In this document: in pieces, positions 23,360 through 32,000 of the stretch
Layout: every line of letters begins with the position of its first letter
Position numbering within the stretch: the first letter of the stretch is position 1
Made by a program: the position numbers and the translations under genes
The notes under the pieces: generated by a model
Seen by the model: only the letters and a program-made list of their open reading frames with translations
Told to the model about the DNA's origin: nothing
The model's database searches: none
Source of the DNA: Candidatus Harpocratesius repetitus
GTDB taxonomy: Archaea; Asgardarchaeota; Lokiarchaeia; Sigyniarchaeales; Promethearchaeaceae
NCBI GenBank assembly: GCA_021498095.1
Contig: JAIZWK010000001.1
Location: 2,760,001-2,792,000, forward strand
Direction of reading: 5' to 3'
Length of the DNA: 32,000 bases

Positions 23360-25360
23360 ATGGAATCAGAAAAATTTAATTGGAAAAAAGGAATATTTCA
23401 TGATAGTAGTTCGAATTTTGTGTCTACTTCTAACCCAAAAAAGGGAGAAAAGATTCACATTTATATTCAAATGCTAAAAAATTCTCCCATTACTCAAATA
23501 TTCTTCAGCTTTTTTCAAGATGGTGAAGAAATAAATATTGAAATGCAAAAACTTCCAAAATCAAGTTTGGAAAGAAATAACTACTCTTCAAATCTAAAAG
23601 TATATTCTACAAAAATAGAATTAAAAGGAAATGAACTTAAGTATAGATTTAGAATTTTGACAAATCAAGAACATTTTTGGTATTCAGGTTTAGGTTTAAC
23701 TCGAATAACACCTCCAAGTGAGTATTGTTTTACTATAATAGCAGATGCTTTAATTCCATCTTGGGTTACCAAAACGGTATTCTATCAAATTTTTCCTGAT
23801 CGATTTTGCAATGGAAATCCTTCAATAGATGTAAAAAATAACGAAATCTCAAGAGGTAATGAAAAATCAGTTCATTGTGAATGGAATGACATTCCTGGAG
23901 AATATGGAAAAAATTATACAAGTTTACATTTTTATGGAGGTGATTTAGCAGGAATTAAAGAAAAAATATCTTATCTTCAAGATTTAGGAATAAATGCGAT
24001 TTATTTAAATCCAATTTTTAAAGCTAATTCTAATCATCGTTATGATACTATTGATTACTATAGAATTGATCCACATATTGGTAGCAACGAAGAATTTGCT
24101 CAATTGGTGCAAGAATTGCACAATCAAGGAATTCAAATTATTTTAGATGCTGTAATCAACCATACGGGAGATAAACACCCATGGTTTAATAGAAATGGCG
24201 ATCCCAACAAGGGAGGTGCATATACATCACCAAATGATCCGCATAGATGTTTTTATCGGTTTTATAATGAAGATCCGGAAAGTTTTGATGCATGGAAAAA
24301 TTATAAACTCCTCCCTCGCCTAAATTATAATTCTGATGAACTAAAAGATCAAATATATCGAAAGTCAGATTCGATTCTTAAATATTGGATGCAAACACCA
24401 TATAACATTGATGGTTGGCGATTTGATTGTGCAAATATGGTTGGAAAATATGATTCATTAGGAAAAAGAATCAATGTATGGGAAGAAATTCGTACTCAAT
24501 TAAAAAAAGTCAATCCTAATTCTTTTATTATTGGTGAAAGCTTTTATGATGGAACTGAATTAGTGAATCACCATAAACTTGATGCAATCACTAATTATTG
24601 TGGATTTTATTCTCCTCTTATTCGATGGCTAACCCAAAATGATGGAATTCAAGCATTAAGTAATAAAGAATTTCGTTGTTTTTCATTTTCATATTATTTT
24701 TCACTTTCAGATATGATTACCCAGATGAAAATTTATCGTAATAAGCTACCCTTTCAATTTCAACTAATCCAAATTAACTTATTAGACAGCCACGATGTTC
24801 CAAGATTATTTTCGGCAATAGGAAAAAACGAATCAATAATGAAAATGGCAGTGTGTTTTTTATTCACTTATATTGGGATACCGATGATTTATTATGGAGA
24901 TGAAAATGGAATGGAGGGTATTTCTGATCCTGCCAATCGACAACCTATGATTTGGGAGAAAGCTAGATGGAATTCAAATTTACGACAATTTTATAAGAAA
25001 ATGATATTTTTACGAAAAGAATATTCTGAATTACAAATTGGATCTTTTTTTAATTTTCAATTTGACACAAATAATTCATCAGAAAACGAAGACTCTTATT
25101 CTGAAATTCTTGCTTTTGCACGTTTTTCGAAATCTCGCTGTTTAATTATTATACTACAAAAAAAAGAAGTAAAAAAACAAATACAGATACCTTTATGGCA
25201 ATTGAGGTATGATTCAGGTGTAATTAAGCCTCTACTTGATTTAATTAATCAACAAGAAATTAATCAATCTTTTAAGTTAAACACTAAATTTTCTCAAGGT
25301 ATAGCGATATTTCATGCTGAAAACATTTATCCTTGTTATATTGGAGAAATCAACAATTAG
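23360..25360 (+). CDS. GH13 maltodextrin glucosidase/neopullulanase-like alpha-glucosidase
   Basis: FYQIFPDRF, GGDLAGI, DAVINH (region I), GWRFDCAN (II), IGES (III), LDSHD (IV). ATG 23360 or the track's TTG 23309. Confidence 0.93.
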   Translation: MESEKFNWKKGIFHDSSSNFVSTSNPKKGEKIHIYIQMLKNSPITQIFFSFFQDGEEINIEMQKLPKSSLERNNYSSNLKVYSTKIELKGNELKYRFRILTNQEHFWYSGLGLTRITPPSEYCFTIIADALIPSWVTKTVFYQIFPDRFCNGNPSIDVKNNEISRGNEKSVHCEWNDIPGEYGKNYTSLHFYGGDLAGIKEKISYLQDLGINAIYLNPIFKANSNHRYDTIDYYRIDPHIGSNEEFAQLVQELHNQGIQIILDAVINHTGDKHPWFNRNGDPNKGGAYTSPNDPHRCFYRFYNEDPESFDAWKNYKLLPRLNYNSDELKDQIYRKSDSILKYWMQTPYNIDGWRFDCANMVGKYDSLGKRINVWEEIRTQLKKVNPNSFIIGESFYDGTELVNHHKLDAITNYCGFYSPLIRWLTQNDGIQALSNKEFRCFSFSYYFSLSDMITQMKIYRNKLPFQFQLIQINLLDSHDVPRLFSAIGKNESIMKMAVCFLFTYIGIPMIYYGDENGMEGISDPANRQPMIWEKARWNSNLRQFYKKMIFLRKEYSELQIGSFFNFQFDTNNSSENEDSYSEILAFARFSKSRCLIIILQKKEVKKQIQIPLWQLRYDSGVIKPLLDLINQQEINQSFKLNTKFSQGIAIFHAENIYPCYIGEINN

Positions 25361-25506
25361 GCTTGAATAATTTCCCTATCAATAAGGTTCTGTACCTGAT
25401 TATGAACAGCATTTACAGATAAGTTCAACAATTGAGCCATATTTCGATATATAATTCGAGAATTTTGTAATAGCACTTGGATAAGTTGATGATCTTCAAT
25501 ATCCAT
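25357..25506 (-). pseudogene. Lrp/AsnC-type HTH only (49 aa): truncated regulator or stand-alone HTH; not in the ORF track
   Basis: Hand translation: MDIEDHQLIQVLLQNSRIIYRNMAQLLNLSVNAVHNQVQNLIDREIIQA*; stop overlaps the GH13 stop. Confidence 0.7.
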
Positions 25507-25555
25507 GATTAATTTAATTTTTAAGCAAAGTTATATACTTTTTTTAATTATGCAA

Positions 25556-26980: not shown

Positions 26981-27409
26981 ATGTGCAACCAAAATAAAGC
27001 GTGTAAGGAATTACATGAAATCAAAGCGGAAAATATAATGAGCAGGGATGTTACAGTAGTTGAACCAATGGAAAAGCTTTCAACTGCTGAAATTTTAATG
27101 ATTAAAAAGAATATTGGTGGATTACCTGTTGTTTCTCCAGAAACAAAAAAACTAATTGGTATTCTTACACAACGGGATATTCAAATTTCGAAAACATTAA
27201 TCGGAACTGATATATTCCATGTTGATGATATTTATTCGAAAAATCCTGTAGTGGGAAAACCAGATGAAAGTTTACCTAAAATTATTAAAAAAATGAATCA
27301 ATACAATATTGAACGAGTACCTATTGTAGATGATAAAGATCATGTAATTGGAATTGTAGTAACAAAGGATTTAATTCGTTCATTAGCAGAATTTTTTGAT
27401 GATCCATAA
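26981..27409 (+). CDS. CBS-domain pair protein
   Basis: AENIMSRDV...IGGLPVV...LIGILTQRDI and IERVPIVDD..VIGIVVTKDL. Confidence 0.93.
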   Translation: MCNQNKACKELHEIKAENIMSRDVTVVEPMEKLSTAEILMIKKNIGGLPVVSPETKKLIGILTQRDIQISKTLIGTDIFHVDDIYSKNPVVGKPDESLPKIIKKMNQYNIERVPIVDDKDHVIGIVVTKDLIRSLAEFFDDP

Positions 27410-27670: not shown

Positions 27671-30600
27671 ATGGCTGAATTTAAATTTCCCCGGTGGAAA
27701 CCATTCACATTTATAGATTCAAACCCGCCAATATTCTATCCAAGTTTTATTAATGAATTACTCCAAAAATGTGATAATTTTTCCCATACATCAGATATAG
27801 AAACGTTATTTTGGCAGATTCTCACTTTAAAATATCTCAAATTATTAAAAACTAGTGAATTCGAAAATTATTATCAAACATTAATTAAATATGAAGTTAC
27901 AGAAAATGATAAATCGGGTTTTTTAAATCCTCAATTGAAATACTCAAAGAAAAAGAAGAATACAACTTTTTCGATTACTGATTCAGATATCTTAAGTACA
28001 TATTACATCTTAAATATATTCGCCTTAACAGGAAAATTAACGGAATATTTAGCAACTTTGAATGGAAATCGGAAAAAATATTTGGAAAATTATATTTTAG
28101 ATTTACAATTTCATTTAAAAAAGAATAGTCGGAAATCTCAAGCAGAAATTCTCTTTTACATTACTACACTATATCTATTATTAGGAAATTCTCCACGGAC
28201 GATTCAGCACCAAGTAATACAGCAAATAAAGCCAAGTATCAAGCAATCTAAAGGACCGAATACTGTTTTTAAATTACTTTTATTTCGATTTTTTAATATG
28301 CAAGATCCTTTGAAAGAAAGCGATTTGATTTCATTACACCAACTTCAAAAAACAAATGGTGGTTTTAATTTTAAAAATTCAACTATTGCAGATCCATCGA
28401 ATACTTTTTGGATCGTTTTCACCTTAGAAACTTATAGTTGGTTTTTACCCTATCGTCCAGGACCAATATATTCATATCTTTTATCTTTTCTTCGACATGA
28501 ATATCAACATACACAAAATGATTCACAATATCTTTTCTCTAAGAATACTATTAAGTCTATTTTTCAATTAATAGTCTTGTATGCATGTATTTTCGATTCT
28601 CTATTGAATGATGTAGAAAACTTAATTTTTACTAATATATCTAAGAAAGGGATGTTAAATGCAGACAAACTTTCGAATGAAGGAGGATTTGCAGGAGCAG
28701 AGAATGAAATTATCTCTTTATTAAATCAAAAATTTCAATTTAAATTAGAAATATTAGATAATAACATAGTATTTCGGCGATATTTAAATCGTTTAAATCC
28801 ATTTAAAGAAAAATTGGCTGTTCAAATTAGGAAAGAAATAAGAAATTCTCTGCAATTCGATATTAATGAATTTGTAAAAAATTATAACCGGACAAAAAGT
28901 CGAACAAATCGAATTAAAGTTGAATTTATATGTGATTTAATCCAAGAAATGGAACAAGAATTTTTCTTTACAGGAAGTCTTAAATCTCGTAATCGTTTTT
29001 TCTTTTTCCATTCCTATTTATATATTCGGGAAAATTTCATCGAAAAAATCATTGTATGTGACAAACAACTGAATTGGCAAGATATTCAACATGAAAAAAA
29101 ACGGATGGAAGAAATCCTTATAGACATATTCAATATGATAAATGAGATTAAAGAGGCAAAAACCCGAATTTTAAATGATATTGAATCTATGATTTTGGTT
29201 GGAATGAATCCCGAAAAAATTGAAGAACATATGAAATTTTTAATCAAAAATACCCTGATTGATGCTACATTTTTCCGAAAAACAATTGAAACTTTTACTA
29301 GTGAATTTGTTTATTTAAATCCAAATTATGCTCTTAATTCACGAATTAAAGAGTGGGAACTCCTATATTCAAATCTTCAATCAGATTTTCGAAATATTAG
29401 AAAAATACTAAATATAAAATTAGACAACTTAAAAGATGAAATTCAACAAAGAGACTTTCTCTTTTCTTTAGAAAAGGAAATAAATACATGCATAAACCAA
29501 ATTACTGAAAATGCAATAAACTTTGAAGAAAATTTCCGACAAACATTTGACCAAGAATATCATCGAAAATTAATAGATCAACTAAAAGAACAATTGAAAC
29601 TAACAAAAGATAATTTAAATATGCTTGATAAACGGATTAAAAATCGATCTTTGAGAATTACAAGTAAAAAAACAAAAATCACTCAAATGCGTAATAAACT
29701 AATTAATAAGTGGATTTCGCATAAACAAGATATTACTCAATTACTTGCTTTTTATCAAGAAGGCTTTGATTATTGGGATAAATCTCTATCAAAATTTGAA
29801 TTATTACAAAGTAGTTTTCTTCAAAGAATTAATAAAGTTGAAAAAGAAATCAAAAAAGAAATATCTAAAAATGATTATTCAGTCGCATTTGAAATGAATA
29901 GAAGAAAATTTGCTGAAATTTTTAATGATATGAATTTATTAACCAATAATTTTGAAAAGGAATTTAATAAAAAACGCAAAGGAGCGCGTAAATTAAATCC
30001 TTTATATCAAGCACTGATAACAGAGTGGAATTCGCTTCAATATTCACTAGAAGCCCTAATTCAACAAAAGAAGCGTTCGTTCCAAAAATCTATTACTATG
30101 GATCAAATTTCTTTTCATACCGAGAATTTTCAACTTATTGTAGAATCCCAAATCACCATTCTGAATCAAAAGCTTATTGAATTCAAAAAAAGATTTTCAT
30201 CCCTTATTAAACATGATGAAAACATATCCCAATATAATTATAATCATGAAGCTGAAAAATTAAAAAAGGATTTTTTAAAAATACAAGCTCAAATAAAAGA
30301 TGAATACAATAAAATTAAAAAACTCAAATTAAATATAGATTTATCTCTATCTCTTAAGCAATTTCAAGAATTTGAACAGCATTTTAATCATGAAATTCAA
30401 GAAATAATTGATCATTATAATCGAAAAGAAAAAATTCGAAAAATTCTTAAATATGCTGAAGATAAAAATCAAAACTTGTTTGAAATTGCTGAGATCGCTC
30501 AAATATTAAAAATGAGCATATCTGAAACAGATTCATTGCTAAAACAATTAGTATCTCAAAATTTACTTAACGCACGAATATATAATAAAACAAGAAAAAT

Positions 30601-32000
30601 TGAAATACACAATAAGAATTGGAGAAATTATCTCAAACTAAAACAAGAAAGCGAAATTCGTTGTCGGGAATTACAAGCAAAAGTAAATTTAATTCAAAAT
30701 TATTTTAATAAAGCAGTAATCAATCATGAATTTTTGGAAAAAAGCGACCAGCTCGATACACTTATTGAAGAGTTTAATGAATATATAGAAACCAAATCTA
30801 ATGAATTTGAAACTTTTATACAAGATAATCAAATAAATACGAAAAACAATCTGATATATGAAGAATACTTGCAATTCTATCAAAAAATAAATAAGATGAA
30901 AGAACAAGTAAACTCACTACAGAATACAACAAATCAAGCAAAAGAATTTGAACAAATACTTAAGGATTTTACTTCACGTTTAGAAGATTTTGGAAATTCA
31001 ATAATTAATAAAATTGAGCAGGAATTTCAAACTACATCAAAATTATCGCATAAAAATCATACAAAATACTTGCAAAATCAATGGAGTTTTATTCAAAATT
31101 TCTTAGATGATATTCTTTTACAAGAAAAAACCCGTAGAAAAGAAATTTTTCAAAAAAACGGAAATTTTGGAGAAATTTTCTTTGATATTGAAGATGATTT
31201 TAAAAATAGAATTCAAAATATCATGCAAGATTTTAAGACAACTTTCCAAAATTATGAAGAAGAATTAAAAATAAATGAAATAAAAAACCTTCGCCAAAAA
31301 ATGGACGAAATTGTTATCGAAAAGCAAAACCTTGTTGGACAAAATCAAAGAAAAATTGATTTAGAAATAAAAAATAAAATTAGAGCAAAAGAATATATCA
31401 TAGCAGCCAAAAAATTAAATCAACGAGCAAAAAGTCTATATAAAATATTGAAAAATGCTGAAAAAGAAATAAAATTAGCAAACAAAGAGTTTAATGCAAA
31501 ATCAAAAGTATTTGGTATAAAATACTCACCATATATATTAGAAGAATGGACAAACTTTCAAAAACAATTTGAAGAATCAGTAATTTCTACTTTAAATAAA
31601 GTATATGCAAGAGAACTTGTGTTAAACTTTACTTTTTTCTCGATAAAATCCTTTAAAGAGCCTTTTGTCCCATTAAAACTTATAGCTGAAAACCTATTTT
31701 TAAGCCATGATCAAGTACAACATATTCTTATGAGTCTAATAAGCGAAGGAATGCTTTCAGGAAAAATTGATTTAGAACATGATGTTTATTTTGAAGGAAC
31801 AATAAGTTTTGATGATAAAAGTATTGCTCGATTAGAAATTATAAAGAAAACAAATGTTAAAACATATTTAAGAATCAGGCGTTTGGTGAATGTATTTGCA
31901 ATTCTCGGTCCGATTTTAACAGGATTTGCTTCTTTCTTAACAATATTATGGTATTTGATCCGTTTAGCCACAAATTTAGTCTTCATCGCAATTCCTATTG
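27671..32000 (+). CDS. Giant multidomain protein (at least 1443 aa, 3'-partial): prenyltransferase-like repeats, coiled coils, PCI-like winged helices, C-terminal TM
   Basis: Hand translation from ATG 27671 found no in-frame stop to the window end. Absent from the ORF track, presumably because it has no stop inside the window. Confidence 0.88.
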   Translation, partial: MAEFKFPRWKPFTFIDSNPPIFYPSFINELLQKCDNFSHTSDIETLFWQILTLKYLKLLKTSEFENYYQTLIKYEVTENDKSGFLNPQLKYSKKKKNTTFSITDSDILSTYYILNIFALTGKLTEYLATLNGNRKKYLENYILDLQFHLKKNSRKSQAEILFYITTLYLLLGNSPRTIQHQVIQQIKPSIKQSKGPNTVFKLLLFRFFNMQDPLKESDLISLHQLQKTNGGFNFKNSTIADPSNTFWIVFTLETYSWFLPYRPGPIYSYLLSFLRHEYQHTQNDSQYLFSKNTIKSIFQLIVLYACIFDSLLNDVENLIFTNISKKGMLNADKLSNEGGFAGAENEIISLLNQKFQFKLEILDNNIVFRRYLNRLNPFKEKLAVQIRKEIRNSLQFDINEFVKNYNRTKSRTNRIKVEFICDLIQEMEQEFFFTGSLKSRNRFFFFHSYLYIRENFIEKIIVCDKQLNWQDIQHEKKRMEEILIDIFNMINEIKEAKTRILNDIESMILVGMNPEKIEEHMKFLIKNTLIDATFFRKTIETFTSEFVYLNPNYALNSRIKEWELLYSNLQSDFRNIRKILNIKLDNLKDEIQQRDFLFSLEKEINTCINQITENAINFEENFRQTFDQEYHRKLIDQLKEQLKLTKDNLNMLDKRIKNRSLRITSKKTKITQMRNKLINKWISHKQDITQLLAFYQEGFDYWDKSLSKFELLQSSFLQRINKVEKEIKKEISKNDYSVAFEMNRRKFAEIFNDMNLLTNNFEKEFNKKRKGARKLNPLYQALITEWNSLQYSLEALIQQKKRSFQKSITMDQISFHTENFQLIVESQITILNQKLIEFKKRFSSLIKHDENISQYNYNHEAEKLKKDFLKIQAQIKDEYNKIKKLKLNIDLSLSLKQFQEFEQHFNHEIQEIIDHYNRKEKIRKILKYAEDKNQNLFEIAEIAQILKMSISETDSLLKQLVSQNLLNARIYNKTRKIEIHNKNWRNYLKLKQESEIRCRELQAKVNLIQNYFNKAVINHEFLEKSDQLDTLIEEFNEYIETKSNEFETFIQDNQINTKNNLIYEEYLQFYQKINKMKEQVNSLQNTTNQAKEFEQILKDFTSRLEDFGNSIINKIEQEFQTTSKLSHKNHTKYLQNQWSFIQNFLDDILLQEKTRRKEIFQKNGNFGEIFFDIEDDFKNRIQNIMQDFKTTFQNYEEELKINEIKNLRQKMDEIVIEKQNLVGQNQRKIDLEIKNKIRAKEYIIAAKKLNQRAKSLYKILKNAEKEIKLANKEFNAKSKVFGIKYSPYILEEWTNFQKQFEESVISTLNKVYARELVLNFTFFSIKSFKEPFVPLKLIAENLFLSHDQVQHILMSLISEGMLSGKIDLEHDVYFEGTISFDDKSIARLEIIKKTNVKTYLRIRRLVNVFAILGPILTGFASFLTILWYLIRLATNLVFIAIPI

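Follow-up and report, generated by a model that had tools for sequence, protein, structure and literature searches.

A candidate membrane scaffold of Lokiarchaeia that joins a toroid head, a helical rod and PCI-type winged helices

Background

Spectrin-repeat linkers such as the nesprins and plakins, and likewise bacterial EzrA, organise partners at membranes, and one spectrin repeat measures about 5 nm. The ER-anchored DDRGK1 has a winged helix through which it pairs with UFL1. Few cultured organisms are as closely related to eukaryotes as Lokiarchaeia, and the lineage is noted for actin-supported protrusions; how membranes are shaped and supported in these archaea is a standing question. Earlier work mentions PCI-like winged helices in Asgard and archaeal ESCRT-linked proteins (PMC10936438). 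Here we describe a giant ORF at the end of a stretch of 32,000 nucleotides from Candidatus Harpocratesius repetitus (the window), whose product is a candidate membrane scaffold.

Results and discussion

The frame that starts at 27671 on the + strand runs through 1443 codons to 31999 with zero in-frame stops and is open at the window edge, as the initial annotation had claimed. Since a random frame at about 26% GC would meet a stop once in about 12 codons, an open frame of this length is not due to chance. Extension of the contig, a check which that annotation had asked for, reached the stop after 28 further codons, 86 nt past the window edge (84 coding nt plus the stop), and the complete product is 1471 aa. 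The CDS, which full-length homologues support, thus covers 27671..32000 and continues to window-equivalent 32086 including the stop (genome C1:2787671-2792086). The ATG start is confirmed because the homologues begin with the same N-terminal peptide (aa 1-22, 27671..27736, +), which carries the motif F-K-x-P-x-W-x-x-F and is disordered in the model. The ORF at 27671 is therefore a real and complete gene. Its family is at present labelled 'hypothetical' in databases. A family assignment for the protein was not found in NCBIfam, the full-length family profile gave zero matches at E <= 1 against PDB sequences, and a description of the family was not found in the searchable literature.

An exhaustive search recovered 54 family representatives, about 20 of them full length (1417-1499 aa), and unrelated coiled-coil matches were absent. 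When the source genome is excluded, the family is present as a single-copy, full-length gene in 4/6, 68/69 and 1/1 genomes of the three closest families, 73 of 76 in total, and it is absent from all 224 genomes searched in the phylum's remaining 27 families. The family is thus single copy in nearly all genomes of one Asgard (Lokiarchaeia) order. The lengths of the segments are near-invariant despite identities of 20-30%: rod 1 has 465-482 aa (in 22/22 homologues), rod 2 has 341-349 aa and each winged helix has 44-48 aa. In a word-based search no shorter proteins were found that carry the module of the second winged helix and the membrane hairpin alone. The scaffold gene has three conserved neighbours, namely an RsmB/PUA methyltransferase gene, a gene for a CBS-pair protein, which lies upstream on the same strand (26981..27409, +) and is conserved in the closer relatives, and a convergent gene for a Hef (FANCM-like) helicase. 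All of these are housekeeping genes, from which no hint of a function can be drawn. Synteny is lost in the most distant members.

The N-terminal peptide is followed by an alpha/alpha toroid (aa 23-310, 27737..28600, +), the fold of which is nearest to protein prenyltransferase beta subunits and squalene-hopene cyclases, and in which H148 is invariant. The prenyltransferase-repeat-like motifs that had been reported from this region do belong to a toroid head, but the protein itself scores 14.9 bits on PF00432, which is below the cut-off of 26.5, and the zinc ligands of the enzymes are absent. Among the homologues, 13 of 22 match PF00432 at E <= 0.01, the best of them at 3e-20, and some carry the NCBI name 'prenyltransferase/squalene oxidase repeat-containing protein'. 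Next to the toroid lie two winged-helix-like segments (aa 326-460, 28646..29050, +). Their order of helices and strands in a medium-confidence model agrees with the two weaker winged helices that the initial annotation had placed near 28650-29030, but sequence matches to support them were not obtained: with the profile searched against the PDB the best match, at E 0.03, was a designed protein. The second of the two has the pattern L..M..E.FF.G.I with an invariant G435, and the segments are linked weakly by profile (E 1.3e-4) to WH1, the first of the two winged helices farther along the chain. The mean pLDDT of the N-terminal model is 62.7, and the structure models in this study were built on alignments of 4-5 sequences only.

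Pro occurs only 3 times and Gly 7 times between residues 520 and 1300, a region in which K, E, N and Q are abundant. Helical rod 1 spans aa 469-935 (29075..30475, +), modelled at its two ends only, and it is probably made of about four helical-bundle repeats. Rod 2 (aa 982-1330, 30614..31660, +) is modelled as three spectrin-repeat-like three-helix bundles with continuous joining helices. In the model of aa 860-1330 the helices are long, with pLDDT of about 90, and they turn back through short turns into three-helix bundles that match spectrin repeats. In this model the rod looks like tandem antiparallel three-helix bundles of the spectrin, plakin or nesprin kind and not like one continuous coiled coil. 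Hence, of the roughly 800 aa of K/E/Q-rich, heptad-like helical sequence described earlier, the composition and the long helices stand, but the long coiled coil is not supported by the model. Spectrin itself is not matched in sequence, as none of the 22 homologues hits PF00435 at E <= 0.01. Aromatic columns are conserved at aa 562, 681, 898, 1069, 1177 and 1293, with about 108-125 residues per repeat. The hhalign self-matches at shifts of about 105 were not taken as evidence of a periodicity within the rods, because the reversed controls score equally well. What does separate from its control is a longer unit: aa 592-971 align with aa 982-1367 at a probability of 99.2% and E 2e-19, compared to 7e-4 for the reversed control, and by this comparison three bundles and the winged helix behind them form a unit that arose by internal duplication.

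The two winged helices of this unit, WH1 (aa 936-981, 30476..30613, +) and WH2 (aa 1331-1377, 31661..31801, +), are of the PCI type, and the claim that PCI-like winged helices lie at 30476-30610 and 31664-31792 was borne out by Pfam, by profiles and by structure superposition. PF01399 scores 37.8 bits across the two stretches against a cut-off of 22 and matches 21/22 homologues at E <= 0.01. WH1 alone reaches 22.8 bits, and its family profile finds DDRGK1-UFL1 (4.7e-6), eIF3e (1.5e-4) and Rpn6 (6.6e-4) in the PDB. WH1 is homologous to WH2 (E 2.4e-10, control 0.17), and no region of the family is better conserved than WH2, at 40% mean pairwise identity. The modelled WH2 superposes on DDRGK1 and on a proteasome-lid subunit (9e8g chain V) with an rmsd of 1.3-1.7 A at about 20% identity, and when the C-terminal half was searched with Foldseek against the PDB the top 50 matches were all PCI subunits (E 2.5e-3 to 5e-2). 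The winged helices of the lid, CSN and eIF3 match WH1 and WH2 about as well as DDRGK1 does. A TPR-like solenoid was not detected N-terminal to the winged helix, where the helices align best to spectrin repeats. To call these modules 'eukaryote-like', as had been done, is too strong, since of 14 prokaryotic control genomes 4 also contain PF01399 matches and the model gives 23.8 bits, the level of WH1 alone, on a 49-aa AsnC-type HTH in the same window.

Beyond WH2 the chain leads into the membrane. A membrane-adjacent amphipathic helix and a basic stretch (aa 1378-1400, 31802..31870, +) come before transmembrane helix 1 (aa 1405-1431, 31883..31963, +), which is supported by hydropathy and conservation and in which the motif P-I-L...(A/G)-S-x-x-T-I is conserved. 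Transmembrane helix 2 (aa 1436-1456, +) starts at 31976, crosses the window edge at 32000, ends at window-equivalent 32038 and is followed by a basic cytoplasmic tail. The membrane segment reported at 31883-31960 was thus correctly recognised and is the first of two. Two hydrophobic helices, a loop of 4-5 residues and a basic tail are conserved in 22/22 homologues, and the hydrophobic segments bear conserved small-residue and Pro motifs. The anchor is, as predicted from these sequences, a C-terminal hairpin in which two helices cross the membrane, and the tail behind it is cytoplasmic; 'tail-anchored' is therefore right only loosely, as the anchor is not of the classical single-pass kind. Basic residues precede TM1 and come after TM2, and an N-terminal signal sequence is absent from the 1471-aa protein; therefore the bulk of the protein is predicted to be cytoplasmic. 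A homodimer prediction for aa 1288-1465, which comprise WH2 and the hairpin, scored 0.00 against a mark of 0.42, a result that counts neither way.

The reading that we favour, and which we regard as reasonably probable, is that the protein is a cytoplasm-facing structural scaffold of fixed length, held in the cell membrane by the two-helix hairpin and composed of a toroid head, a bundle rod and PCI-type winged helices; the elongated, C-terminally anchored membrane scaffold proposed in the initial annotation is supported in this form. The toroid and the two winged-helix-like segments would sit at the end of the rod that is far from the membrane, and the rod would consist of about seven three-helix bundles, the fourth or so and the seventh each being followed by a PCI-type winged helix. 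By analogy with the spectrin repeat such a rod, if extended, may be about 35-40 nm long. The protein could then act as a fixed-length spacer or ruler that sets a toroid for ligands or proteins and two winged helices for protein docking at fixed distances along the inner membrane face or away from it. By the precedent of PCI proteins and DDRGK1, the winged helices would probably serve for docking to other winged-helix proteins or for self-association of the scaffold side by side. There is also a bolder version, to which we give a slim chance, in which the protein is a Lokiarchaeial membrane-skeleton element or linker whose rod is truly homologous to eukaryotic spectrin repeats and whose winged helices dock UFL1-like tandem winged-helix proteins or cytoskeletal partners, making it a prokaryotic forerunner of the spectrin- and nesprin-type membrane-cytoskeleton linkers.

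Four other readings were weighed, and they are given here in descending order of credibility. The first is a golgin-like tail-anchored tether, a parallel dimeric coiled coil the distal end of which captures vesicles or another membrane; in its favour are the membrane anchor at the C-terminus, the globular head at the distal end and about 800 aa of sequence rich in helix and in K/E/Q/N. We consider this unlikely, since golgin-type Pfam domains occur in 0/22 homologues, the anchor is a two-helix hairpin and the rod is interrupted by winged helices; the golgin-like coiled coil of the initial annotation holds only loosely, given that the rod is modelled as antiparallel bundles. It is very unlikely that the protein is a DDRGK1-like receptor whose winged helices, by winged-helix pairing, recruit the UFL1-like tandem winged-helix proteins of this genome to the membrane. 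DDRGK1 is indeed among the best matches of WH1 and WH2 in both sequence and structure, and two proteins encoded elsewhere in the genome exceed the cut-off of PF09743 (UFL1 family) with 30.7 and 28.3 bits; these UFL1-like proteins are encoded at C1:350910-353180 and by a 937-aa ORF at C1:3336216. However, winged helices from the lid, CSN and eIF3 are about equally good matches, the resemblance is limited to the winged helix, as PF09756 (DDRGK) is unmatched in the giant ORF at E <= 0.1, and Ufm1 was not found in the genome, so that a UFM1-system reading was rejected.

Less likely again is a membrane-tethered enzyme, in which the toroid would be an active prenyltransferase or terpene cyclase working on isoprenoid lipids or proteins and positioned by the rest of the chain. 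Archaeal membranes are isoprenoid-based, and the nearest folds of the toroid and the NCBI names of some homologues agree with such an activity. What argues against it is that the zinc ligands Asp238 and Cys240 of RabGGTase beta fall on variable, Cys-free columns and that an invariant residue (His) was not found near the expected third ligand, both in a colinear profile alignment that is weak (E 0.015-0.02). Moreover, the HCx3-4CxxC knuckle, which is the sole conserved metal-like motif and one that most homologues have, has been lost from the clade of the 1471-aa protein, the alpha-subunit repeats (PPTA, PF01239) have no match at E <= 0.1 in the 93.6%-complete genome, and head and anchor lie at opposite ends of the chain. 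From its sequence, the toroid head is predicted to be non-catalytic. The least likely reading, which we hold to be highly improbable, is that of a membrane-tethered subunit of a PCI/MPN-type complex related to the proteasome lid, the COP9 signalosome or eIF3. It draws on the above-cut-off PF01399 score and on the Foldseek matches, but the good match is confined to the winged-helix subdomain, the helices before it are nearer to spectrin repeats than to a TPR-like solenoid, two winged helices about 350 aa apart in one chain are unlike any PCI subunit, and ordinary prokaryotic HTH proteins match PF01399 too.

A structural scaffold, the reading preferred here, would join to one membrane anchor three types of fold best known from eukaryotic machines, namely a toroid, a spectrin-like rod and PCI-type winged helices, the last of these used in Asgard archaea outside the setting of the lid, CSN or eIF3. 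For the question of membrane shaping and support in Lokiarchaeia, a near-universal, single-copy protein of constant length is a concrete scaffold candidate that is testable in cultured strains. Even as a lineage-specific structural protein without a eukaryotic link it would be a well-defined core gene of its order.

Comparison with known systems

With the beta subunits of FTase, GGTase-I, RabGGTase and GGTase-III the protein shares the alpha/alpha toroid, about 290 residues long and bearing repeated GGF...FW motifs, but it differs from them in that the zinc ligands are unconserved, an alpha subunit was not found and a scaffold of 1150 aa is joined to the toroid. The winged-helix subdomain of the PCI subunits (Rpn3/5/6/7/9/12, CSN1-4/7/8, eIF3a/c/e/k/l/m) and of DDRGK1 is the same in sequence pattern and fold, whereas here two of them occur in one membrane protein in which a TPR-like solenoid was not detected. 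Golgins and other tail-anchored coiled-coil tethers are likewise long helical proteins with a C-terminal anchor and a distal binding end, but the modelled rod of the 1471-aa protein is not a continuous coiled coil, its anchor is a hairpin and golgin domains are absent. The remaining comparison is with the membrane-anchored spectrin-repeat linkers, namely the nesprins and other KASH proteins, the plakins and bacterial EzrA; unlike these, the Lokiarchaeial protein is without a spectrin sequence match, a CH domain or a KASH peptide, and it has a two-helix hairpin as its anchor and winged helices within its rod.

Reading frame and neighbourhood of the giant gene

The initial annotation described a giant open frame starting at position 27671, and this frame was indeed found to run on the (+) strand from ATG 27671 to the window edge for 1443 codons without a stop, with all the listed features at their coordinates. 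The window corresponds to C1:2760001-2792000 of the 4.36-Mb genome, a single contig, and when this contig was read past the window edge the frame that had been left open ended at a stop after 28 further codons, giving a protein of 1471 aa. Since the G+C content of about 26% in the region makes random frames very short, an ORF of this length is not due to chance. The homologues also open with the conserved peptide F-K-x-P-x-W and this common N-terminal peptide therefore fixes the start codon at ATG 27671.

The neighbouring genes, conserved in the closer relatives and gone from the distant members, encode an RsmB/PUA methyltransferase, a CBS-pair protein and, in tight convergence, a Hef helicase. 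These are housekeeping genes and the neighbourhood offers no functional lead. The Hef (FANCM-like) gene lies just past the window end (L002:7135-9339, (-)) and its 734-aa product apparently is without the nuclease half that the full-length Hef model of 781 positions includes. The Hef gene and the giant gene run towards each other, with only 5-48 nt separating their stop codons, and this arrangement persists in relatives where the giant protein is at just 22-29% identity.

Internal duplication and winged helices

When aa 592-971 were aligned with aa 982-1367 by profile-profile comparison, the match covered 378 columns with a probability of 99.2% and an E value of 2e-19 (7e-4 in the reversed control), and the winged helices WH1 (aa 936-981) and WH2 (aa 1331-1377) alone matched each other at an E value of 2.4e-10 (control, 0.17). 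The giant protein therefore has a unit made up of some three bundles and a PCI winged helix twice over, preceded by one extra bundle. Self-matches within the rods at a shift of about 105 residues were set aside because reversed controls scored as well. Conserved aromatic columns occur about once every 108-125 residues.

Of 14 prokaryotic genomes taken as controls, 4 also had matches to the PCI model (PF01399), and a 49-aa ORF with an AsnC/Lrp-type HTH (window 25357-25515, (-)), used as a specificity control, reached 23.8 bits on it. Thus, a PCI score of about 23 bits alone is unspecific and the winged-helix claim therefore rests on structural and reciprocal matches. The 49-aa ORF, which lies between the alpha-amylase and RsmB/PUA methyltransferase genes, consists of the HTH alone without a ligand-binding domain and is possibly what is left of a gene, or else a mini-regulator. 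In the predicted model aa 326-460 comprise two further segments with the winged-helix order of helices and strands, and in the second of them the pattern L..M..E.FF.G.I includes an invariant Gly; the sequence support found for these segments was limited to a weak match of profiles with WH1 (E 1.3e-4). Elsewhere in the genome a 422-aa protein (L007:424-1692, that is C1:1310465-1311733, (-)) has one N-terminal PCI-like winged helix (19.1 bits, below cut-off), a beta-rich middle and a C-terminal CxxC...CxxC zinc ribbon.

Family and distribution

A word-based search gave four relatives, each full length and each from Promethearchaeota MAGs, and an exhaustive profile search gave 54 cluster representatives, about 20 of them full length (1417-1499 aa), with no spurious coiled-coil matches. 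The homologues are named 'hypothetical' or 'prenyltransferase/squalene oxidase repeat-containing protein' in their sources, and one cluster of 192 members matched in the ESM Atlas. When the family profile was run against 301 genomes of the phylum at E <= 1e-10, leaving the window's own genome out of the counts, a full-length single-copy gene was found in 4/6, 68/69 and 1/1 genomes of the three closest families and in 0/224 genomes of the other 27 families. Despite identities of 20-30% the segment lengths are nearly constant, with 465-482 aa for rod 1, 341-349 aa for rod 2 and 44-48 aa for each winged helix. The most distant member (P0058) has on its contig, 3 kb upstream, a methyl-coenzyme M reductase alpha-like gene (L011:3110-4918, (-)), which points to a relative in the class that metabolises alkanes or methane. 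Some relatives have a second family of about 1250 aa (G144:C2:172555-173394; G258:C1:45501-46331; AlphaFold DB A0A524FMQ6) with the rod-plus-winged-helix module in common, matching family positions 712-990; no copy was detected in the window's own genome at E <= 1e-10.

Winged helices of the PCI-like type have already been described for Asgard and archaeal proteins in connection with ESCRT (PMC10936438). In the literature searched no published account of this family or of spectrin-like rods in Asgard archaea was found. The component folds are all known; what is new is the architecture and the tight lineage distribution.

Membrane anchor, toroid head and proposed role

The anchor, which the initial annotation took to be a tail anchor, is a hairpin in which a loop of 4-5 residues connects two hydrophobic helices, aa 1405-1431 and aa 1436-1456. 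Both helices are kept in 22/22 homologues, the first with P-I-L...(A/G)-S-x-x-T-I and the second with a Pro, and basic residues cluster ahead of the first and behind the second. As the giant protein has no N-terminal signal sequence, by the positive-inside rule both termini and the 1400-aa bulk should be cytoplasmic. The golgin-like coiled-coil tether proposed earlier is disfavoured by this hairpin, by the winged helices that break the rod and by the bundle model, outside of which aa 540-860 lie. A counterpart of the lid, CSN or eIF3 complexes is likewise disfavoured, as the good match to these is limited to the winged helix.

The toroid (aa 23-310) resembles protein prenyltransferase beta subunits and could be taken for an enzyme, but when its profile was aligned with RabGGTase beta, a weak match though a colinear one, the latter's zinc ligands Asp238 and Cys240 came to lie on variable columns without Cys, and a search of the genome gave no alpha subunit with PPTA repeats. 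We therefore disfavour the enzyme and read the toroid as a probable binding module. An HCx3-4CxxC knuckle at the invariant His148 (window 28112-28160, aa 148-163) is present in 16/22 aligned homologues, and in the giant protein and its closest relatives the cysteines are lost, the His is kept and there is a short deletion. The genome has two further matches to the toroid family, in a 389-aa ORF above cut-off (C1:2028303-2029001, (-)) and, weakly, in a 2082-aa giant ORF (C1:2331282-2331611, (+)). A role as a DDRGK1-like receptor is kept as a lead. The UFL1 family PF09743 has two matches above cut-off at other loci of the genome, one in a protein of 756 aa (L003:403-2673, that is C1:350910-353180, (-); 30.7 bits, PCI 37.8 bits) and one in a 937-aa ORF (C1:3336216-3336773, (-); 28.3 bits); against the receptor role, the search of the genome for Ufm1 found no gene, and the giant ORF itself gave no match to the DDRGK model. 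In the 756-aa protein an N-terminal zinc ribbon is combined with 4-5 PCI-like winged helices in tandem and a C-terminal part rich in beta structure, a layout similar to that of the 422-aa protein.

The analysis shows a protein that is anchored in the membrane and constant in length, in which a rod carries two docking modules at fixed places and a head at the distal end. Judged from these features, the giant protein may be a scaffold or spacer on the inner membrane face. WH2 is its most conserved part (mean pairwise identity 40%) and is taken as the candidate key docking site. We rate it among the membrane-anchored rod scaffolds, a known kind, and the proposed role would be analogous in principle to that of the spectrin-repeat linkers (nesprin, plakin) and of bacterial EzrA.
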